Shown: positions 5,540 through 41,300 of the stretch, one piece after another
Numbering within the stretch: the stretch's first letter is position 1
How the letters are laid out: each line of letters begins with the position of its first letter
Virus record (IMG/VR): IMGVR_UViG_3300027710_000027
DNA: 64,000 bases
Reading direction: 5' to 3' (one strand)
Source: a virus
The notes under the pieces: generated by a model
Told to the model about the DNA's origin: nothing
The model's input: the letters and a program-made list of their open reading frames with translations, nothing else
The model's database searches: none
Made by a program: the position numbers and the translations under genes

Positions 5540-6400
5540 ATGCTATTAAGAGTAGGATCAACAGGAGAAGAAGTAAAGAAGCTCCAAGCATTACTTGGCG
5601 TAGATGTCATTGGTAAGTTTGGGCCAAAGACAGAAGCCGCTGTCAAAGGATGGCAGTCTGCTAACGGCTTGACTCCTGATGGCATAGTTGGGCCTAATAC
5701 TTGGGCAAAGATGTTTGCTCCAGTTGTATTTGCTCCTAGTGCTCATACAATTGAAGTTCCTGCATTACTAACAACTACAGGAGGTGCAGGATTGCCAGTA
5801 TTCAAACTAGATGCACTTAAAGGTCATATACCGCAAGCAGTGATTGATCAGATTCCTGATACAGCTGCCAGATTTGGGATTACTAATACATTAAGACTTG
5901 CTCATTTCTTGGCTCAATGTGGCCATGAGAGCGGAGGCTTTAGAGCTGTTCAAGAAAACTTAAACTATGGTGCGAAGGGCTTGCTTACTATCTTTAAGAA
6001 ATACTTTAAGACTATTGAGAAAGCAAAAGCATACGAACGAAAGCCTGAGAAGATTGCTAACTTAGTTTATGGTAACAGAATGGGTAATGGTAGCGAAGCA
6101 TCAGGAGACGGGTGGAAGCACCGTGGAAGAGGCTATATCCAGCTCACTGGTAAGGACAATTATGAAGCATTTGATGCCACAGTACCTGAAAACATTATGG
6201 CTAATCCAGACTTGGTTGCAACTAAATATGCCTTAGCTTCGGCAGGGTTCTTTTTTAAGAAGAATAACTTGTGGTCAATATGCGACAGAGGTAGTTCTCC
6301 AGATGTTGTAACTTCGGTAACTAAAAGAGTAAATGGCGGTACAATTGGGCTTGCCGATAGACAAAAACATTTCAAAGAATACTATAACCTATTAAGCTAA
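5540..6400 (+). CDS. Endolysin: peptidoglycan-binding domain plus GH19 glycoside hydrolase
   Basis: LLRVGSTGEEVKKLQ...DGIVGPNTW (PG_binding_1); LAHFLAQCGHESGG and RGRGYIQLTGKDNY (GH19). Confidence 0.93.
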   Translation: MLLRVGSTGEEVKKLQALLGVDVIGKFGPKTEAAVKGWQSANGLTPDGIVGPNTWAKMFAPVVFAPSAHTIEVPALLTTTGGAGLPVFKLDALKGHIPQAVIDQIPDTAARFGITNTLRLAHFLAQCGHESGGFRAVQENLNYGAKGLLTIFKKYFKTIEKAKAYERKPEKIANLVYGNRMGNGSEASGDGWKHRGRGYIQLTGKDNYEAFDATVPENIMANPDLVATKYALASAGFFFKKNNLWSICDRGSSPDVVTSVTKRVNGGTIGLADRQKHFKEYYNLLS

Positions 6401-6528
6401 TGGCAAAATCAAAAGTATCATCCGAAGCAAAGAAGATTACATTCGGAGTACGTCGTAAGGGCAAGCATGCTAAGACATCAGGACCAAAAGACAAAAAAAC
6501 TAAACGTAACAGAGGGCAAGGAAGATAA
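6400..6528 (+). CDS. 42-aa basic microprotein ending RGQGR
   Basis: Manual translation MAKSKVSSEAKKITFGVRRKGKHAKTSGPKDKKTKRNRGQGR; TAATG coupling on both sides. Confidence 0.65.
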   Translation: MAKSKVSSEAKKITFGVRRKGKHAKTSGPKDKKTKRNRGQGR

Positions 6529-6671
6529 TGAGAGCAGCTATTTTTATCGTATCGTGTATAGTTGCAACTGCCTTATGCATTGATGCGTACTTTATATACT
6601 TGCATTTCTTTGATAATAACAAAGCCAAACAAATCATATCTTTAGTTGATAAAAAACTAACCCCTAATTAA
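6528..6671 (+). CDS. 47-aa single-TM protein
   Basis: Manual translation MRAAIFIVSCIVATALCIDAYFIYLHFFDNNKAKQIISLVDKKLTPN. Confidence 0.5.
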   Translation: MRAAIFIVSCIVATALCIDAYFIYLHFFDNNKAKQIISLVDKKLTPN

Positions 6672-6673
6672 TA

Positions 6674-6958
6674 ATGGCACTTAAAAAAGTCGACACTAAC
6701 CCATTACCTATATCATTCAAAGATTTTGCCAAGAACCCAGTTGTTGGCACTTTATTTTTAGCATTAATCGGAATATCATATTTATACATTGATGTTCGTA
6801 ATACATTCACAGACCAAATAGAAAGACAAAATGGCAAAATCGACAAAATGGAAATCAAAGTTGATGCGTGTACTAATCAGTTACGCAGGTCCGATTCTCT
6901 CCTCTCAGCTAGTTCGAGTAAAATCATGGTTCTACAACAATTGGGTCAAATAAAATGA
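6674..6958 (+). CDS. TM plus coiled-coil protein
   Basis: VGTLFLALIGISYLYI TM followed by heptad repeats. Confidence 0.6.
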   Translation: MALKKVDTNPLPISFKDFAKNPVVGTLFLALIGISYLYIDVRNTFTDQIERQNGKIDKMEIKVDACTNQLRRSDSLLSASSSKIMVLQQLGQIK

Positions 6959-7326
6959 GAAGTCTAGTTTTTATCTTTTCGGTTATCGTTTTGTTTTCTT
7001 GCTCATCGGTAATAGCTGATCAAGATAAAAAAGAGAATGACTTAGATAATAAAAACGTTGTAGCAAAGGATGATGACTTTGCTGCGATTATGTTGCGTTC
7101 TCAAAAAACAGGATTGTTTGCATCTAGTGCTGTGACGAAAGCTGATAAGGCTGTGGTTAGTAAGATAGAAGTTACTGTTCAGAAAATAGATAAACTTGAA
7201 GATAAAATAGAAAACCTAACCAAGACCAATGAAGAATTACAAGTCAAAGCTAATAGTTTTATTATTGAGCCTTATATTATTGAGCCACTTATCGATAGCA
7301 CAGTATCCAAAAAGAATAATCAATAA
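6955..7326 (+). CDS. Putative lipoprotein with coiled coil
   Basis: Signal MRSLVFIFSVIVLFSC with lipobox-like LFSC. Confidence 0.55.
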   Translation: MRSLVFIFSVIVLFSCSSVIADQDKKENDLDNKNVVAKDDDFAAIMLRSQKTGLFASSAVTKADKAVVSKIEVTVQKIDKLEDKIENLTKTNEELQVKANSFIIEPYIIEPLIDSTVSKKNNQ

Positions 7327-7645
7327 AGATACTCTTGTTGTGATGACCGAAGGTCAAGCAAAAGAAATCAACAATACATTTAAATATTTAAGGTCAGATA
7401 ACGACAAGAAAAAAGCTACTGCTGATTCACTTCGCACGTTAGTTGGTGCGTTTGATGAAGAACGTAACAAGTACAGTAATTATCTTAAAAACGCAGAGAA
7501 CGCTTATTTACTAAGCAAAAAAGAGAATCAAATACTCTTGGATTCACATAAATCATTAAAAATAGGCAAAGTTGCACAAGACATTAGTGTACTTACTTTA
7601 ATGTTTACTATTGTGATGTTATTTAAAGTAACATCTGGTAGATAA
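7229..7645 (+). CDS. Exported coiled-coil protein with C-terminal TM
   Basis: N-terminal signal-like segment and C-terminal ISVLTLMFTIVMLF; overlaps the previous gene by 98 nt. Confidence 0.55.
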   Translation: MKNYKSKLIVLLLSLILLSHLSIAQYPKRIINKDTLVVMTEGQAKEINNTFKYLRSDNDKKKATADSLRTLVGAFDEERNKYSNYLKNAENAYLLSKKENQILLDSHKSLKIGKVAQDISVLTLMFTIVMLFKVTSGR

Positions 7646-7669
7646 CTTGTTTTTTATATTATTTATTTT

Positions 7670-7677
7670 TACATTTG
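7670..7677 (+). promoter_or_regulatory. Bacteroidota sigma70 -7 box for the HNH cassette
   Basis: TACATTTG. Confidence 0.7.
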
Positions 7678-7684
7678 CCATGTA

Positions 7685-7767
7685 GTTGCCATCTCACATT
7701 ACGCAACAAAGACAAAAACAGTCCTATAAATGAAACCGAGGTGAGATGCGGTGGATTTTGTAGGACT
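7685..7767 (+). ncRNA. Candidate structured 5' leader (two hairpins with complementary loops)
   Basis: Stem GTTGC/GCAAC; stem AGTCCTATAAA/TTTGTAGGACT with inner ACCG/CGGT; loop sequences CATCTCAC (7690-7697) and GTGAGATG (7741-7748) are perfectly complementary. Confidence 0.55.
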
Positions 7768-7777
7768 TATTTTTTAT

Positions 7778-8308
7778 ATGGAAATTTGGAAAGATGTTGT
7801 TGGCTATGAAGGGCACTTTATGGTTAGTGAAAGCGGAAAAGTTAAATCATTAGACAGGAAATATAAAAGGTCAGACGGATCTATATATCCTGTAACAGGA
7901 AAAGAATTAACGCCTTTTATTAGTAATGCAGGTTATAAAAGAATTTCACTTAGAAGAAATGGTAAACCAATGAAGTATTCTGTGCACAGATTAGTAGCTG
8001 AAGCATTTTTGCCTAGAGAAGAAGGTCGTGATTTTGTGAATCACCTAGATGGGAACAAATTAAACAATCACTATTCTAATTTAGAATGGGTGTCAATGAT
8101 TGAAAACAATTGTCATAGATTTAATAAAATAAATACAACTAGTAAATACACTGGCGTTACTTGGATAAAAGCAAAACAAAAGTATGTCGCAGTTATGCAA
8201 ATTAATGGTAAGCAAAAAACAATCGGTCATTTTATTTCAGAAGAAGATGCTTATGCTGCTAGATGTAAGTATGAAAAGGATAATGGTATAATAAATAAGT
8301 ATCTGTAA
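7778..8308 (+). mobile_element. Free-standing homing endonuclease (NUMOD4 + HNH + AP2-like)
   Basis: MEIWKDVVGYEGHFMVSESGKVKS (NUMOD4); VHRLVAEAF...VNHLDGNKLNNHYSNLEW (HNH_3); SKYTGVTW...TIGHFISEEDAYAAR (AP2). Confidence 0.92.
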
Positions 8309-8349
8309 AATTCCGTATTTTTGTAAGATAACAAGCAAAGATACCACCT

Positions 8350-11300
8350 ATGTGTGCTAGAATCTCAACGTATTCTCCCGATTTAGATGTCACCGGTAAC
8401 GACCGTTGGATAGGCTCGGACTGGCAAACTCCAGATAAATTAACCAAAAACTTTACAGCCAACGCTGTAGCGGAATACTTCAATCGTGTAGGTATTATTG
8501 ATACAGGTAGTTTTAATTGGTCATACAGAATGTATGCTCCAACAGAAACGCAGCCTGCGAAGACGTTTGAGTTAGTCGACCATCCATTTGATACAGTAGA
8601 TGTAATTGGACTCGCAGGGACCATCAAGGTTTCTTTCTTAACCATGGCCAACACAGAGCCAGGTATATTCATTGAAGAAGTTTGGAACGACAAGATTATT
8701 CTTGTTAATCGACCAGGATTCCCTAGCGAATACGGACTATACAAAGTAACAGCTGTTGTTGAAGATGGCGATTATTATTTCTTAGACTTAGATTTTATTG
8801 GCGGTAACTCAGGAACTATTTCTGAAGACGAGCCGGTTACATTTGGCTTATTCACAGGCGTGAGTGGTACAAGTGGTACTACAGGTACTTCAGGTACAAG
8901 TGGTACGACAGGTACATCAGGCACTAGTGGCGTAAACGGTACAAGCGGCTCATCAGGCACCACAGGTACAAGTGGCTCATCAGGCACGGCTGGCACAAGT
9001 GGGTCATCAGGTACAACAGGTACATCAGGCTCATCAGGCACAGGTGGCACATCAGGTACTAGCGGAACGAATGGTTCAGACGGCACCTCAGGTACACGTG
9101 GTACGTCAGGTACGTCAGGTATTGATGGTATCGATGGAACAGACGGTACGTCAGGAACAACAGGTACATCAGGTAGTTCAGGTACAGATGGCACAGGAGG
9201 TACATCGGGAATAGATGGTACTAGCGGTTCAAGTGGTTCAGGAGGAACTAGCGGGTCAAGTGGAATAGATGGCACATCAGGCACAGGAGGAACTAGCGGT
9301 ACAGATGGTACTGGCGGTACTTCGGGTACAGATGGCACAGGTGGTACTAGTGGTACTTCAGGGTCTAGTGGCTCATCAGGTATTGATGGCACTTCAGGAG
9401 TAAATGGCACATCAGGTATTGATGGAACTAGTGGCTCATCAGGTAGTTCAGGTACAGACGGAACAGGCGGTACATCAGGTACTACAGGTACTAGTGGTAC
9501 TTCAGGGTCATCAGGATTGACAGGATCATCAGGCACATCAGGTACTAACGGTAGTGCAGGTACATCAGGTGCTCAAGGAATATCTAGTGGTAGAATATAT
9601 TATTTAAACTACTCACAAGCAGGTTCTATATCCCCATACAAAAATTTGAGTGAGGAGCCTACAACATTGCCAGCTCCGTCTATTGTACCTGTATCTTTAA
9701 TAGCAAATGAGCAAGATAAGTTAGTAGCTCAATTTATTACAGAAGAATTAGGATTTACTATTATCCCGGCAGGTGTTCAAAGATTCACTTTAGAATATTT
9801 AAAAGAAGACCAAAGCGATAATATATCTACATATGCTAGTGTTCAGTTTACCCAATCAAACGGAACACCTATTGGTAGCCCTGTATTAACAAATACAGCC
9901 CCATTGGCTTGGGTTAACGCAACAACTCCTACTAATGTTTTTGTAGATGTAGTTTTTGCAACTACACCTATTGACCCAACATGGAAAGTATTAGTTAGTT
10001 TATATGTAAACAATGATGACAATCAATTAAGAGCATTAGATTTTTACACAGAGAACTCTGAGTACTCTTATGTAATTACATCAATAGGATTTGAGTCAGG
10101 CACATCAGGTACATCAGGTTCAAGCGGTGTTAACGGAACTAGTGGCTCTTCAGGACTTACAGGTTCTTCAGGTACTAGTGGAGAGTCGGGTACTAGTGGA
10201 ACCTCAGGAGCTGACGGTACAAGCGGAGTAAGCGGTACATCAGGAGTTAGTGGTACGTCAGGAGTAGATGGTACAAGCGGTGTTAGTGGCAGTAGTGGAA
10301 CAAGTGGAGAAAGCGGTTCAAGCGGAAGTTCAGGAGCAAGTGGAACAAGTGGTGTATCAGGTACATCAGGCATCAACGGAACTTCAGGAGTGAACGGTAC
10401 TAGTGGAGTTAACGGTACATCAGGCACGTCAGGTGTGAATGGAACATCAGGATCATCAGGTACAACTCCAGTTGGTCAGATTACAGGTACACTTACAACT
10501 AATAAAATACCTAAGGCTACAGGAGCCAATACAATTGGAGATAGTATTATCACAGAGGCATCAGGCTCAATCACTGTATCAGGTGCTGCGATTGATAATT
10601 ATGTGGCTAGTTTCATTAACACTGACCCAGGGTCTGCAGGTATATATGTAAAAGCAGATGGCCCTGCATTTGTTTGTGAACCATTATCGTTGGTTGGAGG
10701 AATCACTTTAAATGCTAGTGGTAGTGCATCATTTAGTGGGGACATCACTGCTAATAAATTTATTAAGTCAGGTGGTACATCTTCTCAGTTCTTAATGGCT
10801 GATGGCTCTGTTAACACATCTGTTTCACCAACAGGAGCTTATTTACCATTAGCAGGAGGTACGATGACAGGTGCAATCACATTAGTAAATGGTGCAATTG
10901 GAATAAATGTAGGAGATGATGCAACAATTTCAGATAGAAATATAGCTAATACAATATTTGTTGCAGGTATTCAAAATAATGACAGAGGATATATAAATTT
11001 TTCAGAAACAACAGGTAATTCGTTAGGTGCAGTTAATGGCGGTGCATTAACGTGGAGAGGTGTTGCAATTGCGACAACGGCAAATATATCAGGAACCATT
11101 AATTATGTGCCTAAGTTCACGGGTGCAAGTACTATTGGTAATAGTCAGATATTTGACAATGCAACAAATGTAGGAATTGGTACGGCTACACCTAATGCAA
11201 AACTTGAAATATATCCTGGCACAATAACAGGTAGTGCATTACAAGAAGTTTTAAGAATAGATGTCCCTGGGAATAATATATTTTCTTCTGCTACTGGATA

Positions 11301-13308
11301 TATAAACTTTAGAGGCTACGATCTTTCAAATACTACACAAAGAGACGTTGCTTATATTGGAGCTAAATTAGTTCCTAACGGAGGATCTTCTCCTGCAATG
11401 GGAGCAAATCTTGTTTTTAGTACTTGTGCGGATGGAGCATCTCAAACTCCTATTGAACGTATGAGTATAACGAGTGGGGGAGATATAGAATTTTTAAATT
11501 CTCTTGCACTTAAATCTGTGGCTTCAAGTGGATATATTGCAATGTATGCAAATGGGGGTGGGTTGTATTGGGGAGGCATTGCAGCTACTAATCAAATGCA
11601 TTTAACATCAGCTGGTTCATTAGGGATTAACACATTAACTCCTGTTAATACTGCTTGGGGAAGTGGTACAACAACCAAACAATTATCAATTAATGCATCA
11701 GGTTATGCAGTTATAAATTTACAAGGAGGAATTCGTAATTATTCAATGGGTGCTGGAGATGGCACTTTTTATATGTGTTATGATAACACAGCAGCACGTC
11801 ACAATATTACTGTTGCTTCATCAGGTAATATAACAATAAATGGAACAACAGACGCAGGCTTCAGACTTGATGTGAATGGTACGGGGAGGTTTAGTGGCAC
11901 AGGTAGAACACTTACGGTTGTATCAACAAATGATGCTGTACCTGCTGTAATTAGAAGTAGTAATGGAGCAATTTCAACTTTATCATTTCAAGGTACAACA
12001 TCTACAAATGATTTTAATACAAGAATAGGATGTGATGTAAATGATTTAGTTGCGTTTACTGCTAATGAAATTAGATTTCGAATAGCGTCTAATGGAGCCG
12101 CTAGCTTTCAAAGTAGTATTACCGCAGGAACTAATATTACAGCAGGTGGCACATTAAATGGTCAATCTTTAAATATAACAGGAACACAAAGCACATTTAG
12201 AATTGCATCAAATTATACAGGTGGAGGAGATTTACTATCAGGAACATTATTATATATTGATAATGTTGTTAATAATAATTTAACAATAATTCCTAGTAGT
12301 GCAGGAACTAATGGAAGTACAATTGTTGCTGCGGCATTTAATGGTAGTGCTTGGCGAAGTATGTGGGAATTTGCGAATGTTAGCAGTGGCAATCCGAATT
12401 TAATATTAGTAAAAAATGGAGGTAACGTCCTAATAGGTACCACAACGGATGCGGGAAACAGATTGTACGTTTCAGGAACGGGTAGATTTGATGGTCAAGT
12501 ATTAATTTCTACAGACTCGGGAAATGAGCAGTTTATTATCAGAAGAGGTAGCAATTTTAATCAACAATTAATATTAGGATATCACTCTTCAGGATATGGT
12601 AGAATACAAGCTGTAGAACAAGCTGTAGCTTATAGACCTTTAGTATTAAATGGAGATGGAGGCAATGTGTTAATTGGCACCACAACGGATAATGGATATA
12701 AATTAAATGTTGCAGGAACAGGAATTTTTAGTTCATTCTTAAAATTTAGGTGTGGATTTTATGCATATACACAAGATGGATTATTTAGTGCTAATGCTGC
12801 ATATTCAGCCCTTAATACACCTGGAGCAGATGATAGAATAAGGTTTGGTTATTATGATTATGGTTCAGGCCAATATTGGGGAAGAATAGGTTTTGCGGCA
12901 AATGTAAACTGGTCACTAGGTAACATTGGTTCTGCTGGAAATGATTTTAGTATAGGTACAGGAGCTGCAGGACAAATACTTCTTATAACATCAGCTGGTG
13001 CAACAACATTTAGCGGCTCTGTTACAGCAACATCATTCTTTGAGTCATCAGATAAAACTATTAAGACTCTACTTGTAGATAACTATGAAGCTAGAGGAAT
13101 TGAATCTGTTACAGCTAAGTTGTACATTAAGGATGGTAAGGAAGAGCTTGGATATTTTGCACAAGATGTACAAGGGATATTACCAAGTGCAGTAAGTGTT
13201 GGAGACAAAGGTTTATTAAGTCTTTCTTATCGTGAGGTACATACAGCTAAGATTGCAAGACTAGAGAAACGTGTGGAAGAATTAGAGAAACAACTAAACT
13301 TAAACTAA
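8350..13308 (+). CDS. Giant virion fibre with Gly-X-X Ser/Thr repeats and C-terminal intramolecular chaperone (peptidase S74-like)
   Basis: 1652 aa; two SGTSG blocks; repeated GNVLIGTTTD modules; C-terminal SSDKTIK...GYFAQDV...LSY plus coiled coil; TATTTTTG promoter at 8316-8323. Confidence 0.85.
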   Translation: MCARISTYSPDLDVTGNDRWIGSDWQTPDKLTKNFTANAVAEYFNRVGIIDTGSFNWSYRMYAPTETQPAKTFELVDHPFDTVDVIGLAGTIKVSFLTMANTEPGIFIEEVWNDKIILVNRPGFPSEYGLYKVTAVVEDGDYYFLDLDFIGGNSGTISEDEPVTFGLFTGVSGTSGTTGTSGTSGTTGTSGTSGVNGTSGSSGTTGTSGSSGTAGTSGSSGTTGTSGSSGTGGTSGTSGTNGSDGTSGTRGTSGTSGIDGIDGTDGTSGTTGTSGSSGTDGTGGTSGIDGTSGSSGSGGTSGSSGIDGTSGTGGTSGTDGTGGTSGTDGTGGTSGTSGSSGSSGIDGTSGVNGTSGIDGTSGSSGSSGTDGTGGTSGTTGTSGTSGSSGLTGSSGTSGTNGSAGTSGAQGISSGRIYYLNYSQAGSISPYKNLSEEPTTLPAPSIVPVSLIANEQDKLVAQFITEELGFTIIPAGVQRFTLEYLKEDQSDNISTYASVQFTQSNGTPIGSPVLTNTAPLAWVNATTPTNVFVDVVFATTPIDPTWKVLVSLYVNNDDNQLRALDFYTENSEYSYVITSIGFESGTSGTSGSSGVNGTSGSSGLTGSSGTSGESGTSGTSGADGTSGVSGTSGVSGTSGVDGTSGVSGSSGTSGESGSSGSSGASGTSGVSGTSGINGTSGVNGTSGVNGTSGTSGVNGTSGSSGTTPVGQITGTLTTNKIPKATGANTIGDSIITEASGSITVSGAAIDNYVASFINTDPGSAGIYVKADGPAFVCEPLSLVGGITLNASGSASFSGDITANKFIKSGGTSSQFLMADGSVNTSVSPTGAYLPLAGGTMTGAITLVNGAIGINVGDDATISDRNIANTIFVAGIQNNDRGYINFSETTGNSLGAVNGGALTWRGVAIATTANISGTINYVPKFTGASTIGNSQIFDNATNVGIGTATPNAKLEIYPGTITGSALQEVLRIDVPGNNIFSSATGYINFRGYDLSNTTQRDVAYIGAKLVPNGGSSPAMGANLVFSTCADGASQTPIERMSITSGGDIEFLNSLALKSVASSGYIAMYANGGGLYWGGIAATNQMHLTSAGSLGINTLTPVNTAWGSGTTTKQLSINASGYAVINLQGGIRNYSMGAGDGTFYMCYDNTAARHNITVASSGNITINGTTDAGFRLDVNGTGRFSGTGRTLTVVSTNDAVPAVIRSSNGAISTLSFQGTTSTNDFNTRIGCDVNDLVAFTANEIRFRIASNGAASFQSSITAGTNITAGGTLNGQSLNITGTQSTFRIASNYTGGGDLLSGTLLYIDNVVNNNLTIIPSSAGTNGSTIVAAAFNGSAWRSMWEFANVSSGNPNLILVKNGGNVLIGTTTDAGNRLYVSGTGRFDGQVLISTDSGNEQFIIRRGSNFNQQLILGYHSSGYGRIQAVEQAVAYRPLVLNGDGGNVLIGTTTDNGYKLNVAGTGIFSSFLKFRCGFYAYTQDGLFSANAAYSALNTPGADDRIRFGYYDYGSGQYWGRIGFAANVNWSLGNIGSAGNDFSIGTGAAGQILLITSAGATTFSGSVTATSFFESSDKTIKTLLVDNYEARGIESVTAKLYIKDGKEELGYFAQDVQGILPSAVSVGDKGLLSLSYREVHTAKIARLEKRVEELEKQLNLN
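8857..9590 (+). repeat. Gly-X-X (Ser/Thr/Asp/Asn) coding repeat, block 1
   Basis: About 240 aa with Gly every third residue; synonymous codons vary between units. Confidence 0.9.
10096..10462 (+). repeat. Gly-X-X coding repeat, block 2
   Basis: About 120 aa SGTSGVNG-type repeat. Confidence 0.9.
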
Positions 13309-13309
13309 T

Positions 13310-13744
13310 ATGTCTTGGGCAGGTTTAGCAAGTAATCAATGTGTTAGTTGGGCAAATCTACAGAATGCTGTAGACAATAATGTGTTCATACAAATTGGTT
13401 CAATCCCTCCTCCGGGCATACCTAGCAACAGGGAGATAACAAAAACAGGTGCATTATCAGCGGTTGATATTCAAGCAGCTCCATTGGCAGGCAAGAGTAA
13501 TAATCAGTTAGTAGTAAAGAGTAATTTAGTTGCTACTCCTGCTACCTACTACCAGCTTAATAACTGCTCAGGTGGTGCTGCTGCGTGGACAAAGATTGCT
13601 CCTACATTAGGAGTAGGACAGAGATATGTATTGCCTAGTATTACTCCTGTGTTCTATACTTATAATGGGACATCGCAAACTACGCTGCCTGCAGGATACA
13701 ATGGGTCAATACAAATAGTGTCAGGACAAACAGGTTGTCCTTAA
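13310..13744 (+). CDS. Fibre-associated protein with C-terminal Cys...CP module
   Basis: C-terminal about 65 aa resembles the C-terminus of 27882..32018. Confidence 0.7.
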   Translation: MSWAGLASNQCVSWANLQNAVDNNVFIQIGSIPPPGIPSNREITKTGALSAVDIQAAPLAGKSNNQLVVKSNLVATPATYYQLNNCSGGAAAWTKIAPTLGVGQRYVLPSITPVFYTYNGTSQTTLPAGYNGSIQIVSGQTGCP

Positions 13745-13773
13745 TTTTTAGTAATTTTAAAAAAAATATATAC

Positions 13774-14133
13774 ATGAAAACAATTTCACCAGTCTCTATT
13801 TGGGACAATGGCACAGTACAACAAGCAACTATATTAAATGCTTATGCAGTTAATGTAACTTTAAACACATCTGCTACTTTTTGGTACGGGTTATTTTCTA
13901 CAACAGAAAATGGTAATGTAGGTACACAACTTGCTCAAGGTAACTTATCAATGACAGGCGAGGCTTATGCTGAATGGCAGAGTGACGTTTTTGCTTGGGA
14001 TTGGATTGCAGAGCAATTAAACCTAACCATCACAGGAGACTATATTCCTCCGGTTCCTCCTGAGCCTACTCCTGAGCCTACGCCTGAACCTATTGTAGAG
14101 GAAGTAGTTGCATCTGAAGAACCTATTGCTTAA
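13774..14133 (+). CDS. Conserved fibre-locus protein with PEPT tail
   Basis: ATG 13774 MKTISPVSIW...WIAEQLNLTITG then PPVPPEPTPEPTPEP. Confidence 0.7.
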   Translation: MKTISPVSIWDNGTVQQATILNAYAVNVTLNTSATFWYGLFSTTENGNVGTQLAQGNLSMTGEAYAEWQSDVFAWDWIAEQLNLTITGDYIPPVPPEPTPEPTPEPIVEEVVASEEPIA

Positions 14134-14155
14134 ATTTGTTAAAAATAACATAAAT

Positions 14156-14425
14156 ATGAAACTAAACTTTAATTTTAATCTAACCGATTTAGACGGTAAA
14201 GAACTAGAAGGTGCTAATTCTGGAAAGTTATTAGCTAACACACTTATTCAGCAGACCAAGGGTGATGCTGTGAAGTATTGGGAATGGGCTCTTGCTTTAA
14301 ACAAAGGTGAAGTTCTTGACCTAGATACGTCGGATCAAGAGACTCTTAAGACTTTTGTGAAAGACAGTGAGACTATTACTGTTTTAGCTAAGGCCCAATT
14401 GCTTGGCGTTTTTACTAAGAAGTAA
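14156..14425 (+). CDS. Hypothetical protein (possible fibre assembly factor)
   Basis: ATG 14156 MKLNFNFNLTDLDGK. Confidence 0.6.
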   Translation: MKLNFNFNLTDLDGKELEGANSGKLLANTLIQQTKGDAVKYWEWALALNKGEVLDLDTSDQETLKTFVKDSETITVLAKAQLLGVFTKK

Positions 14426-16417
14426 TATTACATCATCAGCAGATATACTCCTCTGGCACTCAAAATGTCGGGGAGTATTTTTAAAGATGGGGCACCAGTC
14501 CCAATCCCCCGCATCGAATTTAAAGTTAGGGTTGTTCCAACAACTGTTGCATACTGACTTGTTAGTCACACGTATACACTCAAACTCGTGGCCATCTGCA
14601 GCGAAGTTATTAATCATAACTACTTCTTTCCCTAATGCATTTGCTAACCATGAGACTCCGCTGCCTAAGCCTAGGTAAAATTGACTATGGTGAATAATAG
14701 CCATTGTCTTTTGGATGTCATAATTAATAATCTGCTCACAGTTATCAAAAGGATTAGGCTCAAGTGATACATTAATTACTTTGTAGCCTTTTCCGTGCAA
14801 ATAGTTTATCACTCCTTGCCATCCCTCTTTTGTCCAAAACTTACACCCAGCTGTAGAATTAGTAGCTATCGTAATATATTTACCATAGTTATTATTACCT
14901 GGCTCATACTTTAATTTAGGCATAATCTCTTTAAACTCAAGTCCTAATATCTTAGTAGCTGCCTCTTGTAATTTAATTGTGTTAGGTAGTTCAGGCTCTT
15001 TGTTTGTGTCGTAGAACCAGCCAATGTTATATTGAGCATACACGTTAGGCACCACTGTTCCAGGTTTTACTAACTCTATTTCAGGAATGTCAAGTATTTT
15101 GTTCAAAAAAGTTGACATAATTACTTTACACTTATGCTTCTTTTGGAATTCTAAAGCGTATGGAGCCCAAGCAATTGTGTCGCCTAATGACTTACTAGAT
15201 ATAGCGATGTACACACGCTTGCCTTCTAGGTCGAGTACGTTATCGTGAATTAGTTTACCATCCATATAGACTTTACTATGCCACTTAGTATAGTATTGTC
15301 TATTTAGTTTTACCCAACTATTTGATCCGATAGTATTCTCGTAGACTAACTTGTCGCCATCAAAGTATTGTACCTTAAAGTCGGCTTTCAGTCCTGATTT
15401 AATTTCTAGGTATGGTTGACCAACAAAGTGTTGGATGATGGTTACATCTTGTTCTTGTTTGTCTAGTGTCATTACTTTATTATAGAATGCCATTTGTTTA
15501 TCCCAGAATTTCCAAGATGTATTATCTGTAGGTATAGTGTAATTACATTTAATAGTATTTAAGTCAGTATCTATGGGTTGAATATACTTATTAAACATTG
15601 AGCCATATTGTGGCAGGTTGTGAGCTATAATTGGCTTACCAAAAGATATTGCCTCACGTAATACCAAAGGGTTACACTCCCAAGTAGAGTTGAACATAAA
15701 TATATCTGCCCATCTCATATAATTTTCTACATCTCTTCTTTCTCCCCATATTTTCACATTGGCTGGCAAATCCTTCATTAATGGCTCCCAGTAATGCTTG
15801 AAATTTATAGCTTGGTTTCCAACAAAGTGAAAGTTCATATGTGGATACTTCTTAGCTATTTCAAGACCCTCAGCTTGGTTTTTACCAGGAGTCCATAATC
15901 CCACATTGACTACGTTTATTTCTCTTGTGTCAAAAGGATTTAGATACAGGTCATTTCTTTTATCATCTATTGGAAACTCAATCACCTCTTTGTAAGATGG
16001 CGATGAAGCGAATGTCTCTAAGTGATATGGTGTGCAGAAGTAATACGCATCAGGATTAAATATCTTTTCTTTGTCATGGTTAAATGACACGTCGTGACAC
16101 GTCTCCACAATTCTGTACCTTCGGTCTTCACGATATAATTCAGATATCATATCACGATTAAAGCGTTCAGCTGGCTCGTGAATGTGAACAATGTCAGGGT
16201 TGAACTTAGCTATGATATTAAATAATTCCATCTTGTCCTCGTGCAAAGTATGAAAAGGAACAAGACTTTTAATGGCATTACGTTGTACGACATAATCTAG
16301 GCTATGGCATTGATACTCTACCACCTCTATATCTAAATTACTGCAGATAATACTTTGTAAAACAAATGCAGGCATCCCGCCAGTTGAACAGTGAGGAATT
16401 AAGTATAGTAGCTTCAT
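14384..16417 (-). CDS. Two-domain glycosyltransferase: GT-B (GT4-like) fused to a TibC/Aah-type O-heptosyltransferase-like domain
   Basis: N-terminal HCSTGGMP...ADIFMFNSTWECNPLVLREA; C-terminal KRVYIAISSKSLGDTIAWAPY and C-x2-C-x15-C-x11-C (CNSCW...WCP...FEC). Confidence 0.85.
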   Translation of the reverse strand: MKLLYLIPHCSTGGMPAFVLQSIICSNLDIEVVEYQCHSLDYVVQRNAIKSLVPFHTLHEDKMELFNIIAKFNPDIVHIHEPAERFNRDMISELYREDRRYRIVETCHDVSFNHDKEKIFNPDAYYFCTPYHLETFASSPSYKEVIEFPIDDKRNDLYLNPFDTREINVVNVGLWTPGKNQAEGLEIAKKYPHMNFHFVGNQAINFKHYWEPLMKDLPANVKIWGERRDVENYMRWADIFMFNSTWECNPLVLREAISFGKPIIAHNLPQYGSMFNKYIQPIDTDLNTIKCNYTIPTDNTSWKFWDKQMAFYNKVMTLDKQEQDVTIIQHFVGQPYLEIKSGLKADFKVQYFDGDKLVYENTIGSNSWVKLNRQYYTKWHSKVYMDGKLIHDNVLDLEGKRVYIAISSKSLGDTIAWAPYALEFQKKHKCKVIMSTFLNKILDIPEIELVKPGTVVPNVYAQYNIGWFYDTNKEPELPNTIKLQEAATKILGLEFKEIMPKLKYEPGNNNYGKYITIATNSTAGCKFWTKEGWQGVINYLHGKGYKVINVSLEPNPFDNCEQIINYDIQKTMAIIHHSQFYLGLGSGVSWLANALGKEVVMINNFAADGHEFECIRVTNKSVCNSCWNNPNFKFDAGDWDWCPIFKNTPRHFECQRSISADDVILLLSKNAKQLGLS

Positions 16418-16466
16418 ATGCTAAAATTAAAATATAATTAGTACTTTTACAAAAAAATATAATACA

Positions 16467-16721
16467 ATGGATAAATTAACACAAGACGAGTTGGACCGTT
16501 TCAGAGCGGCTCACACAGAAATCAGAAATCTTCGCAATGCTTTGGCAGACGCTGAGATTCAAATCCACAACACCAAGTTAGAGAAGCAATCTGTTTTAGC
16601 TCAATTAGATGTAGCTGGTGCAACGCACGTTAGCATTCAGCAAGAACTACACGCTAAGTACGGAGATATCACGATTGACTTTGCTACTGGAGAAATCAAG
16701 AATAAAGATGGTAATTCGTAA
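16467..16721 (+). CDS. Coiled-coil hypothetical protein
   Basis: Heptad pattern, ends KYGDITIDFATGEIK. Confidence 0.65.
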   Translation: MDKLTQDELDRFRAAHTEIRNLRNALADAEIQIHNTKLEKQSVLAQLDVAGATHVSIQQELHAKYGDITIDFATGEIKNKDGNS

Positions 16722-16926
16722 GATATCAGTTGGTGCAGATTATAAGAATGCAATGAATTATATGCATAATCAATCTGTGCTACAAGGAAACTATAAGATA
16801 CATTTGATTCGTCAGACCGATGCAGGAGATATTGAAATCTACATCGAGGCTAATGATGAGGTGGTCTTATGGAAAAAGATTAATGGCAACATGCCATTCT
16901 TAATTGAATATAATATAGATTTCTAA
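16708..16926 (+). CDS. Conserved hypothetical protein
   Basis: ATG 16708 MVIRKISVGADYKNAM...IEYNIDF. Confidence 0.65.
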   Translation: MVIRKISVGADYKNAMNYMHNQSVLQGNYKIHLIRQTDAGDIEIYIEANDEVVLWKKINGNMPFLIEYNIDF

Positions 16927-16927
16927 T

Positions 16928-17491
16928 ATGAAGTCCCCATTTTACTTTATAGTGCAACCCCGTGATGGCAAGAGATATGACAACACGAGGGGAGAGCTCA
17001 TTATTTCTACATCGAAAGAAGACCACCTTGCCACTATGCGTGAGGCTGTTGTTATCTCTACGCCTATTGGATACGAGGGTCCTGTTGAACCAGGCGATAC
17101 GATTATTGTGCATCACAATACTTTTAGGTTGTATTACGATATGCGTGGTAGAGAGAAGTCTGCTTGGAATTACTTCCGAGAGGACTTGTACTTTATTGAT
17201 GATCCGTATGCATACAAGAAACCTGGTGCAGATTGGATTGGTATTGGTCGCTACGTGTTTATTTCTCCTGTGGAGAATGACTACACAGGCATACTTACTG
17301 CGGACGCAGAGAAGCCTCTTGTAGGCACGATAAAGTACCCGAATGAAGAAGCACTAGCATTAGGATTAAAAGAGGGTGACACGGTCACGTTTGAGCCTGA
17401 GAGCGAGTATCCATTCTATATTGATGGTCAGAAAGTGTACCGTATGTATACTAAGAATCTAACAATTAAATTAGATGAACAAAATAACTGA
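16928..17491 (+). CDS. Tandem double GroES-like protein
   Basis: Two Cpn10-like units: FIVQP...GELIIS...AVVISTP...VEPGDTIIVHHN and VFISP...GTIKYP...LKEGDTVTF...IDGQKVYRM. Confidence 0.65.
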   Translation: MKSPFYFIVQPRDGKRYDNTRGELIISTSKEDHLATMREAVVISTPIGYEGPVEPGDTIIVHHNTFRLYYDMRGREKSAWNYFREDLYFIDDPYAYKKPGADWIGIGRYVFISPVENDYTGILTADAEKPLVGTIKYPNEEALALGLKEGDTVTFEPESEYPFYIDGQKVYRMYTKNLTIKLDEQNN

Positions 17492-17756
17492 GTTAAAGAA
17501 ACGCATCATTGACTCTGGGTATAAAGCCGTTGAGGAGTTAATCAAGGTTGCTGAGGAAAAGATTGTCACCCACATGGATGATGACTTGTCTGCAGACAAA
17601 CTTAAGAATGCAGCGGCAGCAAAGAAATTGGCTATCATGGACGCTTTTGAGATTCTTAAAAGAGTCGAGGAGGAGAATAATATTATCGAGGGAGTAGTTG
17701 GTAACTCTGCACCTACCAACCGTGGGTTCGCAGAACAAAGAGCAAAGACTAAATAA
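17475..17756 (+). CDS. Helical protein, possible terminase small subunit
   Basis: 93 aa helical protein upstream of TerL; position-based only. Confidence 0.4.
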   Translation: MNKITELKKRIIDSGYKAVEELIKVAEEKIVTHMDDDLSADKLKNAAAAKKLAIMDAFEILKRVEEENNIIEGVVGNSAPTNRGFAEQRAKTK

Positions 17757-27881: not shown

Positions 27882-30800
27882 ATGATAGAACTTCAAAGAA
27901 ATTTCCTTTCAGGGGTTATGAATAAGGACCTCGACCCACACTTCTTACCTGATGGGGCATATCGAGATGCGCTTAATATTATTGTAGGCGACTCTGATGG
28001 TGCATTTGTTGAGGAGGATGGCAGTCGTAATGGTGTAGCCCAAAACTATTTGGGTAATATTTTAAAAGGCGAAGACTTGGAGTTAACTAATGCTACTTGC
28101 ATTGGCTCGCTGGCTGTTGAGGCTAACAATTCTATTTATTGGTTGGTGGCATCTGACACATTAGATGCGGTGTATGAGTATAACGAAACGTTAGATATAA
28201 CAACTCCTGTACTTCGGGCTACTAAGTTAACACCCACTACGACTTCATTGCTTGGCTTTGACAAGGCGTATTTCGTTACAGGCATCAACTATATCAACGG
28301 ACTTCTTTTTTGGACTGACAACCTAAATCCTCCACGTAGGATTAATGTTGATCGTGCAAAGAATTATGCAGTAGATGGGTTTACTGAAGCTGACATAAAT
28401 GTTATCTTAGCCCCTCCATTAGAGGCTCCTGCAATTAATTTATATTCAGAAGGAGAAGCTAATAATTTAGAGAATAAGTTTCTTTACTTTTCTTATCGCT
28501 ACAAGTATTTAGATAATGAGTACAGCGCATTGTCTCCATTTTCACCTGTAGCATTCTTCCCAAAAGAATATGCTTACGATTATGGAGTGTCAGAAAACAT
28601 ATCTATGGTTAATAACTTTAACACAGCAGATATAACTTTTAACTCTGGGTCAAAGAACGTAAAAGAAATCCAATTAGTATTTAGAGACACTCAAAGTACT
28701 AACACATACATAATTGATAGCTTAGTTAAAGAGCTAAATAATTATAACGACAATACAGAGTATTCTTTTAAGTTCAAAAACAATAAAGTATTCACGTTAC
28801 TTCCTGCTGAGCAATTAAATAGACTTTTTGACAACGTGCCAATTAAGGCGAAGTCTCAAGAATTAATTGGTAGTAGATTGGTGTATGGCAACTATACTCA
28901 GTTCTTTAATTTATTAAAGGAAAATAAGGAGCCAATTAACCCAGCTTTCTCATTATCATTAGTAACGCAATCTATTTTAAGCGGCACTCCTACTCCTACA
29001 TTTAAGAGTAATAGAGATTACGAAATAGGTATTGTATATTTAGATGATTATGGTAGAATGACTACTGTAATTACACCAACAGAGAATACTAACACAATTT
29101 ATATTCCTGCATCAAATGCTATCACCGGAAATAATATCCGTGTAACTATTGATGGTACTTATGAGCCACCTTCTTTTGCGACTCATTATAGATTTGTAAT
29201 TAAGCAAGATAAGCAAGAATACTATAACGTATTCCCATTGACTTATTTTGAAGACGGGCAATTCAAGTGGTTTTTAATTAACCAAGCAGACCAAGATAAA
29301 ATATCTGTTGGCTCTTACGTATATCTTAAGAGTGCAACAAATAATACTAATATTCAGTATAAGATATTAGATATCCAATCTAAGAATGCAAACTTCTTAA
29401 ACAGTGCTGATTCTAATCAGCCTGCTGGTGTATACTTTAGAATTAAGATAGAGTCATCTGTATTGCCTCCTCTTACATATTTCTACGACTACAATGTTGG
29501 AGGTGGAGAAGATCCACCTAGCACACTAGTTACGGATAGATTTAATGTTGCTGAGAACGCTATTTTTTATGGTGTTGGCATCAACGATATGATAGTAGGT
29601 GCAAGCAATGCTTACACAGGAGCAAATGATGCTAGGTTCTATGTTGAGATTGACTCTACATCAGGTGTAGCTGATACATTTAAGTATTATGTTTCATATG
29701 ATGGCAACTACAAAGTATTAGTTGCTAGTGGAATTACAATTAACTCAGCTGCTGACCAAACACTAACTTATTCAGGTAGTACTTGTTCTATTAGATTCTT
29801 GTCAAACACAGGCCACAGAACAAAGGACTATTGGGTTGTTAATTGTAGAGGTAATTTAGAAGATGTATGTTTAAATATATTTGGTGGGCTTATTGACCAT
29901 AGCACTCCTGTACCGGGCGTATTTTTTACTTTAGATGGATGGAGTCCATCACCGGGTGATAATCAAGATAGACCTGTTAATGCAGGTGCTATATTGACGT
30001 TTAAATACAAGGAGACTAACGGTACTGACCAATGGATTACTCAAACATTTATATCAACAAAAGATTACGTAAATATTGAGGAGTGGTTTATTGAAGATGG
30101 AGCATATCAGAAATGGATTGCTTTAGATGAATCAGATCAAAGTATTGGGCCTAAGAATGTTTGCTTTAGACGTGGGGTATTAGTTTCTACTGGTAGACCA
30201 GGTCTTATATCACAAGGGTCAACTATTGCTCCAAGCACTTTGACGTACCCTGTGTACATGTATTTTTATTCATTCCAGGGGGGAGTTGAACCTGCTATTG
30301 ATACACAGTTTTCATTACAGCAGTCTGAGTTCCCATCTTTGTTTGAAACAGTTCCATTAGACACCAACCAAGATATATATTATGAGCTTTCACAAACGTA
30401 TCCTATTATCGATGGCAATCACTATGGAAATGTTGACAATCAGAATATTGCATTGGGTGCTCCGGCGATAATAAGTTTAAACACGTTTAACTTTAATTCC
30501 GATTTTAACGCATTCTCATTTGGTAATGGAGTAGAAAGTTTTAGAATTAGAGATGACTTTAATTCTGCAACAATGCAATTTAGTCCACGTGCTAATTCAA
30601 CTATTGAAGGATACGAACAACAAACAGTTGTTCAAGCACTAACATATAGTGGTATTTATACTGAAACAACTGCAATTAATAGGTTAAATGAGTTTAACTT
30701 ATCACTTGGTAACTTTAAGTATTTAGATAGATTCTTTGGGTCTATTCAAAAATTATTCTCTCGTGATACAGATTTAATTGTATTACAAGAAAGTAAAGTA

Positions 30801-38300: not shown

Positions 38301-41300
38301 AAGCAAAAGAGACCTTAATATTGTATTCAATGCATTAGGCAAAAAGCTAGATACAGTAGATGCTAGAAAAAAATTCATAGAGAAAGTAAATAGTATTCTA
38401 AAAGGATCTTTAGATAAGATTGCTATCAATGAATTAGATGCATTGAAAGCTACATTAAAAGCAGAAGCTAAAGGAGCAAAGGTTGCTACTAAAGCAGTGC
38501 AAACAAGTATTGCTAATGCGGTAGCTAAAATAAAGTCACTTCAGAAAGGGAACAAGTTAACTCAAGCCCAAGCCAATGTTTTATTGAATGGGTTGAAATC
38601 TAATTTGATGAATCCTGCTATACGTGAGAACTTCTTTAATAGAGTTGAACGTGTATTAGATAACGCTGAGTATGCGGCTAAGGTAGCTCAGGCTAATGAT
38701 TTAAAAGCTAAGATTAAGAAAGCTATTAAGTCAGATACTGTAGTTGATGATATTAAGATTGCAGCAAGAGGACTCGTAGCTATCAGACCAAGTTTAGTAG
38801 AGGATATTGATGAGTATATTGATTATACTGAACAAATGTTCAATGCGGTACGTGGTGTAAAAGTAGTTAAAGGAGAAGTATTAGCAAGACGTGCAGCTGT
38901 ATTGTCTGAAATAAATGATTATGTTAAAGAGCAGAAAGATATCCAAGATGAGATAAATAAAAATATCTTATTGGATCAATACCAATATTTGGTGGATGCA
39001 AAACTAATCGACGACACTATGTCATTAGAAGACATTCAAAATTACATCTCATCAGTGGAAGAGAATGTAGAGAATGCAGATTCTACTAAGTCCGACATAG
39101 TAAAAGAATACACTAAGAATGCCTTTGAGGGGTTCTCTGATGTTGTACGTGATATGATGGCCAACGGGGAGATTGATGAGTTGGATGCCGATTTTGATTT
39201 GATTAACAATTTCTTAAATATGGACATTGAAGCATTGCCTCTTGATAAACAATTGGCTGCTGTAAATGCATTAGAGAACTTAATCGTTAATGGTATTACA
39301 ACTCGAATGGGAGCTGTGTATGAATCATACGTTGGTGTTACTAATTCCGATAAAGATTTAAATGCAGGTTTAGTCGCCCAACCATTAATCTATGGATTAT
39401 TAGGACGAATTCCTCTTGCTGGTAAGATATATAGTTCTCTATGGGGTCGCTATGTATCAAAGGTGGACTCTTTGGTTGTCAATATGTTTAGAAGCACAGC
39501 CAAGGGTATTAAGTTCTTAAGAAACTCTGGGTTTTCTGGAATTGTTAAGGGATTTGTTGATGGTAAAAGTATTGCTAATAAGTTTGCTGATAAATACTCA
39601 GAAAGATTTAAAGGCTCTAGACCAAATGACCAAGATTTCTATACAGCATATAATGCATACGAGCGTGGTATATTTGCTGATTTATCTAGAACCATTCTAA
39701 ATGGAACTCCTGAGGAAATTAAAAAAGAGTTCGATAGAAAGATGAAGCAATTACGTCTTACGATTGAAGAATTGAAAAAGACGAAAGACAGTTTATTGGT
39801 CAAGAAAGCTGACCTATATGACCAGGTATATCAAAAAATAAAAGATAAAAAAGATATCGATGGTGTTAAGAAAGAAATTGATCCTATAAATCAAACTGCT
39901 GTTCAGGAATTCCAAAACGAATGGAAAAAATACTATCCTGAATTTAAGAGAATGGCGGCCGATTATTATGGTATAATTCTAGGTGAAGATACAAACTATA
40001 CCCCTGAGATGTATGAAAAATTAGCCTCAGATACAAGCGTTGATTTATTGACTAAAGGTTCATTTAAAATGGATTTTGATGCAATAAAAACTGAGCGTGT
40101 TGGTACGTTACAAAAAATAAATAGAATAGAAGGTCTTCCTATGACGAATAATGAAGTTACCCGTGTTAGAGATTATGACTTTGATTCTGGTAATATTAAA
40201 GCTTTAGAAAGAACCATAATAGATGTAAGAACAACTCCTTTTGTTCAAAGGTATATGGGTTATATAAACTCAAACGCATTTAAAGAAATGATTCCTGATT
40301 ACAATCAAAGACAAATGATTAAGGATCGTTTGATGTTTAATATAAATGCATTAAGAGAGCGATCAGATACATCTAGTTTATATGAAACTAAGATTGCAGC
40401 TAAGGTACTCTCTACTGTAAGTCGTATGGGTACAAAGATTGGTTTAGGATCTATGAATGCTGCTGTTAAGCAATCATTGCCTATGACATTTAATACATTA
40501 ATCAATACTATTGACGACCCACAGGCTTATCTTAATAGCTTTGCAGATTATATGAATGATGATGCTATAAAAGCATTAAATAATTCTGGATATGGTATTT
40601 CTTTGCGTGGTGCAGAGTCTCAAACATCCATAGACTATGCAGAGAATTTAATAGAGAGGAATAAAAATAAGAATGTAAACCAATTGGTAGATGGTGCTTC
40701 AAATATAAGTGATTTCTATATTGAAACATTCTTAAAAAAGCCTGACGTTTTTGTAGCTAAAGTTTCTTGGTTTGCATACTACAGAAAGAAACTAAAGGAC
40801 TTAGGTTTAGATACAAATATTGACTGGAAAACTCACGAAATAAACGAAGAGGCTGCTGATTACGCTGAATATATGGTTCAAGATCAGCAAAATATGAACG
40901 TATCTGAGTTGGGAGGAAAGTTACTTGCATCTAAAAATCCAACCACAAAGATTATTCGTCAATTGGTATTTCCGTTTGCGTCTTATCAATTTAACTTAAA
41001 GGATAAGAATGCAAGAAATATAACAATACTTACATCTAAAAACTCTAACATTGAAGATAAAGCTGTTGCTTTACAATCTTTAGCATCCGGTATTGCTGAA
41101 TCATATATATTCGAATGGGTTCAAAGAGGTATACAAGGATGGTTATTAGCAGCAGCATATGCTTCTTTAGGTGGAGACGATAGAGACGAAGAGGATAAAT
41201 TACTAGACGAACAATTTAAGGATAAGATATTTTATGGTAAACTTTTTAATGAATTTGCTCTTAATTTACCTGAATTTACATCTGATTTAGTATTATTAAG

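Follow-up and report, generated by a model that had tools for sequence, protein, structure and literature searches.

Homing endonucleases are the commonest selfish genes of phages, and their control has been studied almost solely in T4-like phages of hosts that use Shine–Dalgarno (SD) sequences. How such a gene might be held in check elsewhere is the question raised by a 64,000-nucleotide (nt) stretch of viral DNA (IMG/VR record IMGVR_UViG_3300027710_000027; hereafter, the window), in which a structured segment at positions 7685–7777 leads directly into the gene for a free-standing HNH homing endonuclease. On the basis of sequence comparisons, we identify this segment as the RNA leader of a mobile HNH cassette, a structured regulatory leader or attenuator that most likely throttles expression of the nuclease. 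The coordinates of the leader and its surroundings are collected in Table 1.

The encoded protein matches NUMOD4 (E = 8e-14), HNH_3 (E = 4e-10) and, more weakly, an AP2-like domain (E = 3e-3) in Pfam, in agreement with an earlier reading of the locus, made from the sequence alone, that had called it a homing endonuclease; it is the sole copy of the gene within the window. SD-like motifs occur upstream of the window's open reading frames (ORFs) at background level (2 of 29), while the Bacteroidota promoter motif TAnnTTTG is enriched there approximately 4-fold. Together, these two observations fit an SD-less Bacteroidota host, as the sequence-only reading had assumed. The promoter block in front of the leader is kept in all close homologues, and the published consensus predicts that transcription starts at approximately 7683–7686.

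The minimum-energy fold computed with ViennaRNA consists of exactly two hairpins (z = −2.6), with hairpin 2 contributing most of the −22.8 kcal/mol of the full leader. The first 8 nt of the hairpin 1 loop (in DNA letters, CATCTCAC, 7690–7697) are perfectly complementary to the final 8 nt of the hairpin 2 loop (GTGAGATG, 7741–7748), and the duplex of these two kissing segments has a computed free energy of −10.3 kcal/mol. Hairpin 2 is built from a basal stem (AGTCCTATAAA, 7720–7730, paired with TTTGTAGGACT, 7757–7767), an internal loop carrying a tandem G-A motif (UGAA, 7731–7734, facing GGAU, 7753–7756) and an apical stem (ACCG/CGGT, 7735–7738 with 7749–7752) that closes the 10-nt loop at 7739–7748. 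The base of hairpin 2 lies 10 nt from the ATG at 7778, and the intervening U-tract (7768–7777) doubles as the unstructured stretch before the start codon; part of the linker between the hairpins (7708–7719) is able to pair with it. The promoter box, both hairpins, the complementary 8-nt loops, the start codon and the 10-nt gap had all been placed by the sequence-only reading, and every one of these coordinates was confirmed.

The same reading had described the fold as an RNA switch, a view that found no two-state support. A nested alternative that pairs through the 8-mer is 8–12 kcal/mol worse than the two-hairpin fold in the full leader, and becomes the best fold solely for a nascent RNA of the window's leader type (type A, below) at lengths at which the 3′ arm of hairpin 2 does not yet exist. 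For the full-length RNA, we therefore rejected a riboswitch-like element with two states in which the 8-mer would act as a nested antiterminator. Given this energetic cost, the loops must pair while both hairpins stay formed, in a kissing complex.

To gauge chance, we counted perfect complements of at least 8 nt lying inside the loops of two separate hairpins. These arose in 3–4 of 1,000 dinucleotide shuffles (0.3–0.4%) and in 6 of 2,610 natural 98-nt tiles of the window. The single case alone is thus not significant across the 64-kilobase (kb) window, in which a few such pairs are expected by chance. Its weight comes from recurrence. A detector requiring a complement of at least 7 nt with at least three G or C, separate stems around both segments and a U-tract after the second was run on 527 kb of loci, on both strands, and returned 32 matches, 24 of which (11 distinct loop pairs) lie at HNH start codons. 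The 8 found elsewhere include one upstream of a non-HNH gene and two that merely mirror real elements on the reverse strand. Within the window, no further copy was found: the matches at 8639 and 46880 fall inside coding regions and look like chance, and the idea of an element repeated in this genome was dropped.

A second comparison used 11 non-redundant leaders chosen only because a U-tract abuts the ATG. When the 5′ half of each leader was compared with its own 3′ half, the longest complement averaged 7.0 nt, against 5.6 nt when halves were taken from different leaders; the observed mean was reached in 4 of 20,000 permutations, and the observed count of complements of at least 7 nt in 1 of 20,000 (P of about 1e-4).

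Formal covariation was counted in four alignable type-A homologues (the window, L034, L129 and L147), the counts being restricted to these because a MAFFT alignment of all 17 leader variants was structurally inconsistent. All 92 cells of the 23 pairs were standard, with 14 pairs changed on both sides. None of 500 shuffles came up to these figures, and pairing in slid controls was 35–46%. Within the kissing helix, every cell was paired and three of the eight pairs showed compensatory changes (A-U to G-C, U-A to C-G, and one position occurring as C-G, A-U or U-A). The 15 stem pairs of hairpin 2 were likewise 100% paired, 11 of them with double changes, and hairpin 1 of L034 carries a compensatory G-C to A-U stem change (GTTAC/GTAAC). 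The proposal that the loop–loop pairing is under selection, which the sequence-only reading had staked on covariation, is therefore upheld by these changes and by the approximately 18 different loop pairs found across the wider family. Independent recurrence and covariation in relatives show that the leader is more than a chance arrangement.

In 18 of 19 leaders the sense strand folds more stably than the antisense strand, and G-U pairs make up 52 of 521 predicted pairs, which points to an RNA element rather than a duplex-DNA repeat. These results bear on the idea that the complementarity is accidental, or that it marks a DNA-level feature without RNA function, such as inverted repeats for recombination or protein binding. 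The single case does lie within chance for a 64-kb scan. However, compensatory changes hold the pairing at 100%, pairing within leaders exceeds pairing between them, G-U pairs and sense-strand stability favour RNA over duplex DNA, and loops of so many different sequences rule out a common protein site. We regard this explanation as very improbable.

The same architecture precedes HNH genes that are 33–47% identical to that of the window. Its distant loop pairs include GUGAUGG/CCAUCAC, GGUCAAG/CUUGACC, GUCGCAG/CUGCGAC, GUUGCGG/CCGCAAC, GUUACGG/CCGUAAC, GUCGCUG/CAGCGAC, CAUCUAC/GUAGAUG, CAUCCUAC/GUAGGAUG, CGUCUAAC/GUUAGACG, UUGCUGC/GCAGCAA, AUGGUAG/CUACCAU, GUGGAAG/CUUCCAC and GUAGUGC/GCACUAC, among others. 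In the canonical form, hairpin 1 has an 8-nt loop of one unpaired base and seven pairing bases, a recurrent arrangement that fits a kissing complex, and hairpin 2 consists of a basal stem of 7–10 base pairs (bp), an internal loop, an apical stem of 3–5 bp and a loop of 8–10 nt, followed by the U-tract. The window copy is an enlarged, atypical member, with loops of 13 and 10 nt in place of the usual 8 and eight kissing pairs where most relatives have seven. The linker between the hairpins varies in sequence and from 3 to 24 nt in length, and there is no conserved P1 helix. In contrast to this freedom, every one of the 19 leaders that were folded has a U-tract directly 3′ of hairpin 2. An A/U-rich spacer of approximately 9 to 27 nt separates hairpin 2 from the AUG. 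A self-cleaving ribozyme was rejected because the family has no conserved core, loops and linker varying freely.

Upstream of hairpin 1, a TAnnTTTG box lies at a distance of approximately 5–15 nt in the window, in L004, L016, L054, L065, L091, L132, L103 and L120, and in the cultured Flavobacterium phage FCV-1. The internal loop of hairpin 2 recurs in two forms: a UGAN/NGAU tandem G-A motif (the window, L007, L054, L091, L132, L147 and L129) and a loop-E or sarcin–ricin-like AGUA/GAAA motif (L065, L103, L084, L167 and FCV-1). Leaders of a second type, found in close homologues (type B, below), are without it. This internal loop may set a bend that lets the two loops meet, or may bind a protein.

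FCV-1 (KY979235.1) carries a textbook copy before an HNH-like gene, with the box TATATTTG upstream and the element just 5′ of position 40457. Its loop pair, GUAGUGC/GCACUAC, is identical to that of a kissing-loop leader at L076:666–759 (+ strand), where the downstream ORF encodes not an HNH protein but a metallophosphoesterase-like protein of 240 amino acids. On the minus strand of L218 (near position 1181 of the reverse complement), a leader precedes an ORF without the MEIWK-type NUMOD4 N-terminus. With at least two copies standing before other genes, the element has no strict tie to nucleases. Cellulophaga phage phi19:1 has no leader at all. In Polaribacter phage P12002L (L155; KR136259.1, approximately 27918–28030), a related HNH gene has a different arrangement, in which a long hairpin is followed by U10 and its inner loop, GCGUUUA, complements two downstream copies of UAAACGC. 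These copies lie 3′ of the U-tract, just before the ATG, so that the terminator loop would pair with the initiation region of its own mRNA rather than with a 5′ hairpin.

Searches against Rfam 15 returned no match overlapping the leader at E values up to 10 (window 7000–8600) and none overlapping the leaders of eight relatives at E values up to 1; the earlier suggestion of comparing the leader with Rfam thus yielded no known family. Literature searches on kissing or loop–loop elements associated with homing endonucleases gave no description of this element. Taken together, the comparative data indicate that the leader belongs to an uncatalogued family, widespread in Bacteroidota phages, and is a real control element. 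Among cis-regulatory RNAs it would represent a new class, found neither in Rfam 15 nor in the literature searched. Short, modular and portable, with many natural orthogonal loop pairs, it could serve as a model for co-transcriptional folding and would be an attractive building block for tunable terminators or insulators in Bacteroidota; its presence in cultured Flavobacterium columnare phages makes it directly testable.

Comparison with close relatives showed how the cassette is inherited. The nearest relative, G001, is a 66.5-kb IMG/VR record collinear with the window at 86–97% identity. It lacks the cassette and holds no copy of the leader element; similarity to the window ends at 6611 and restarts at 8311, right after the HNH stop codon, at the tail-fibre promoter. 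Promoter, leader and ORF (7646–8308) are therefore a single inserted unit. In the window, the stop codon of the upstream ORF occupies 7643–7645, and in L004, where the cassette sits in a G001-like context, it likewise begins directly after the upstream stop codon. The replaced region (window 6612–8310 versus G001 6094–10790) is a hypervariable module just 5′ of the tail-fibre gene, with 1.7 kb in the window (three small ORFs and the HNH cassette) and 4.7 kb of unrelated genes in G001.

Close HNH homologues drawn from IMG/VR and JGI metagenomes each carry one of two leader types. Type A, that of the window, is found in L029, L005 and L034, whereas L004, L006, L030, L033 and L171 carry type B, which cannot be aligned with it. 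Type B has the loop pair TGTAGGAC/GTCCTACA (DNA) and precedes HNH genes that are 72–94% identical. Its hairpin 1 has the 8-nt loop UGUAGGAC, and its hairpin 2 is GC-rich (CCCCGAC...GUUGGGG), with a loop containing GUCCUACA, followed by UUUUGUUUUU and the ATG. Types A and B share the same three genomic contexts, and their distribution does not follow the ORF tree: the leaders of the window and L005 are 99% identical where their ORFs are 83% identical, while L004 and L030 share 89–90% ORF identity with the window and have unrelated leaders (approximately 57%). The leader is thus passed between cassettes as a module, and its sequence is more strongly conserved than the nuclease ORF.

One 8-mer is common to the two types. 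TGTAGGAC, the kissing loop of type B hairpin 1 (L004:2922–2929), also forms part of the 3′ arm of type A hairpin 2 (window 7759–7766), where its complement GTCCTA forms the 5′ arm. The overlap may go back to a shared ancestor of the two leader types or to recombination between them. Both this shared 8-mer and the exchange of leaders by recombination would also be at home in the DNA-level explanation weighed above. A 44-codon TTG frame (7675–7809) was dismissed as a leader peptide, since type B leaders are unrelated in sequence and the frame cannot be conserved.

What might such a module do? Our preferred explanation, to which we give a probability of about one half, is a promoter-proximal attenuator in which a terminator hairpin is clamped at its tip to a 5′ hairpin, any masking of translation being secondary. 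The data show the structure with its covariation and strand, the inheritance of the leader as a module and its position at the start of the gene; from these we infer termination, partial read-through, a role for the kissing contact and an effect on nuclease level. Transcription would begin a few bases after TACATTTG, and the first bases would form hairpin 1. Approximately 35 nt later the tip of hairpin 2 would emerge, and its loop would kiss that of hairpin 1 through 8 bp, where most relatives have 7. Hairpin 2 would then close down to its base and, with the U-tract next, would act as an intrinsic terminator, such that most transcripts, whether from the cassette's own promoter or from upstream read-through, would end immediately 5′ of the ATG, and the nuclease would be encoded by the few that read through. 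By clamping and pre-organizing the long, interrupted terminator hairpin, the kissing contact would allow it to fold reliably in any upstream context once the cassette has reached a new site. In this phage, the compact fold 10 nt from the AUG may also slow initiation on the mRNAs that do read through.

The anatomy of the leader is consistent with this proposal. The stem ends at 7767 and the U-run follows directly, inside the 0–2-nt limit for an intrinsic terminator; an A-rich stretch often lies 5′ of hairpin 2, and hairpin-plus-U terminators are used elsewhere in this phage. The resemblance of hairpin 2 plus TATTTTTTAT to an intrinsic terminator had been missed by the sequence-only reading, which took a block to translation as the core function. 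Attenuation fits better: no member of the family lacks the U-tract after hairpin 2, while the ATG lies approximately 9–27 nt downstream, which suggests coupling with termination and not with the start codon.

Several points weigh against an attenuator. As a terminator, hairpin 2 is atypical, being 48 nt long with an AU-rich basal stem (4 of 11 pairs are G-C), an internal loop and a 10-nt apical loop, whereas the ordinary terminators of the phage are short, with loops of 3–10 nt. Intrinsic terminators have a short GC-rich stem and a small loop (approximately 3–8 nt), and a consensus terminator scan did not list hairpin 2. Placing a promoter directly 5′ of an efficient terminator would be a paradox unless termination were incomplete or under control, and literature searches gave no experimental precedent for a kissing contact that aids a terminator. 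The covariation alignment comprises four sequences, from one of which the structure was derived. Finally, with the ATG 10 nt from hairpin 2, masking and attenuation are inseparable in this phage.

The last point leads to a translational gate, in which the rigid kissing fold by the start codon would block access of the 30S subunit and S1 to the unstructured leader that SD-less Bacteroidota need; nuclease synthesis would be kept low and transcription would not be the controlled step. Hairpin 2 ends 10 nt 5′ of the AUG in the window and 9–13 nt from it in many relatives, the window shows no SD enrichment, and leader RNA structure is known to control T4-family endonucleases (PMC2988022). However, an A/U-rich spacer of approximately 17–27 nt leaves the initiation region free in L075, L103, L125, L129 and L147, the U-tract remains directly 3′ of hairpin 2 throughout, and neither hairpin pairs with the AUG. 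The sole helix that does so (7678–7684 with 7775–7781) folds only if bases 5′ of the predicted start site are included, and neither L005 nor type B retains it. For the same reasons, a three-way junction in which this helix would serve as a P1 hiding the AUG was rejected. We consider control at translation unlikely as the main function, albeit the foremost of the alternatives.

T4-family endonuclease genes offer the closest functional comparison. They are controlled by hairpins, terminators, autorepression and RNase E processing, with leader hairpins described for I-TevI, I-TevII, I-TevIII, segB and Aeh1 mobE and internal terminators for mobE and segF (PMC2988022). As in those systems, a cis-acting RNA structure or terminator fronts an endonuclease gene (free-standing or intron-encoded in the T4 family) whose expression is low or late, and the cassette brings its own signals. 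The T4 elements, however, are single SD-sequestering hairpins with a nested late promoter (PMC2988022), whereas the leader described here has no SD sequence and an unpaired AUG, and joins two hairpins through a covarying 7–8-bp loop–loop helix, the second being a putative terminator before the ORF. Sequestration of the start site in the T4 manner was thus not found: there is no SD sequence, the AUG lies outside hairpin 2 and the helix that would cover it is unconserved. No kissing loops have been reported for the T4 family (PMC2988022), so the contrast drawn with T4 endonucleases by the sequence-only reading stands.

The PeSL elements of T4-like phages provide a second parallel, being portable cassettes of approximately 100 bp that combine a promoter with a terminator stem-loop, accompany accessory genes in hypervariable regions and are exchanged by recombination (PMC2839356, PMC4122927). 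The leader is similarly swapped as a module and lies in a replaced region, so that the analogy of a portable promoter–terminator unit holds. PeSL elements have sigma-70 promoters with −35 and −10 boxes and a single GGGG...CCCC stem-loop, and occur in many copies per genome. The leader, by contrast, has a TAnnTTTG promoter, two kissing hairpins and one copy, features that place it outside the PeSL group.

An alternative that keeps the terminator assigns the kissing complex a different role, as an antitermination platform. Here transcription would stop at the terminator by default, and a factor of the phage or of its host would read the shape of the complex and make RNA polymerase terminator-resistant at a set time in infection, on the model of lambda PR′–tR′ with Q, N–nut and HK022 put. 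In the lambda PR′–6S RNA–tR′ arrangement with Q, and in HK022 put, a promoter-proximal terminator follows approximately 100–200 nt on, and put consists of two cis-acting stem-loops. The order of promoter, two hairpins, terminator and then gene is shared by the leader, and its conserved geometry (8-nt loops and a GA-type internal loop) with free sequences would suit recognition by shape. Loop–loop pairing is absent from those systems, however, and for the leader no antiterminator or conserved recognition sequence is known. The element also moves between unrelated phage backgrounds, which makes a phage-specific factor unlikely. Altogether, this explanation appears improbable.

A further alternative treats the stretch from promoter to U-tract as a gene in its own right, producing a stand-alone small RNA (sRNA) of approximately 85–90 nt. 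The terminated product would accumulate and kiss the nascent leaders of its own cassette in trans, a self-addressed lock providing copy-number-sensing feedback akin to that of plasmid countertranscripts, and the diversity of loops would keep cassettes orthogonal. Were this the case, loop pairs would define orthogonal 'incompatibility groups' among cassettes that meet in co-infection, and the leader would be the phage counterpart of plasmid countertranscript control, acting on a homing endonuclease. In its favour, the stretch is self-contained, having both a promoter and a putative terminator, its loop pairs differ among near-identical cassettes (the ORFs of the window and L004 are 89% identical and their leaders unrelated), and the leader is better conserved than the ORF. 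Yet neither kissing 8-mer nor its complement has a second site anywhere in the window, and a trans target elsewhere in the phage was accordingly set aside; pairing within one RNA has a kinetic advantage over pairing in trans; this phage, with its single copy, has no need of orthogonality; and exchange of modules also accounts for the loop diversity. Both the free sRNA and the feedback lock built on it are therefore doubtful, ranking slightly below antitermination in our estimate.

In the plasmid systems themselves (attenuation in pT181, pIP501 and pAMbeta1, together with ColE1 RNAI/RNAII), a 7-nt kissing contact forms between two RNAs, the countertranscript and its target, and induces a terminator. 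The leader shares the 7-nt contact, the intrinsic terminator (here putative) and the harmful or dosage-sensitive gene downstream, but its two loops belong to a single RNA, and there is no evident antisense promoter. Purine-riboswitch aptamers also hold adjacent hairpins parallel in a 5′ leader through L2–L3 kissing loops, upstream of a terminator. They have conserved loops and a conserved junction, a ligand-binding core and a separate terminator helix, whereas the leader has freely varying loop sequences and lacks a conserved junction or P1, and one of its two kissing hairpins would itself be the terminator. The 7–8-bp intramolecular kissing helix that defines the family is demonstrated by covariation but has no known mechanistic precedent.

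Table 1. Features of the HNH cassette and its immediate surroundings in the window.
Feature	Position	Strand	Description
Whole HNH cassette (promoter, leader and ORF)	7646–8308	+	Between upstream small ORF and tail-fibre promoter
Bacteroidota-type promoter	7646–7677	+	CTTG 7646–7649, 20-nt AT-rich spacer, −7 box TACATTTG 7670–7677
Hairpin 1	7685–7707	+	Stem GUUGC 7685–7689 / GCAAC 7703–7707, 13-nt loop
Kissing segment 1, CAUCUCAC	7690–7697	+	Hairpin 1 loop; covaries with 7741–7748 in L129 and L147
A-rich 12-nt linker, AAAGACAAAAAC	7708–7719	+	Length and sequence differ among relatives
Hairpin 2	7720–7767	+	11-bp basal stem, 4 × 4 internal loop, 4-bp apical stem, 10-nt loop
Kissing segment 2, GUGAGAUG	7741–7748	+	Apical loop of hairpin 2; perfect 8-nt complement of segment 1
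U-tract, UAUUUUUUAU	7768–7777	+	Directly 3′ of hairpin 2; 8 of 10 bases T; putative terminator tail
Free-standing HNH homing endonuclease gene	7778–8308	+	176 amino acids; NUMOD4, HNH_3 and weak AP2-like C-terminus (Pfam)
−7 box of the tail-fibre gene's own promoter, TATTTTTG	8316–8323	+	Conserved with G001 and L004; outside the element

Both ends of G001, which has direct terminal repeats, map inside the window, near 14155–14277: window 13022–14277 corresponds to G001 1232–1, and window 14155–17754 to G001 66518–62915. It follows that the two genomes are circular permutations of one another and that the window spans nearly the entire phage genome. Downstream of the cassette, positions 8350–13308 (+ strand) encode a tail-fibre-like protein of 1,652 amino acids with long collagen-like G-T-S/G-S-S triplet repeats; the long PDVP-rich antisense ORFs in this region (for example, 8775–9536, minus strand) are mirror artefacts of these repeats. 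Upstream, at 5540–6400 (+ strand), an endolysin-like ORF combines PG_binding_1 with a glycoside hydrolase 19 (chitinase-class) domain.

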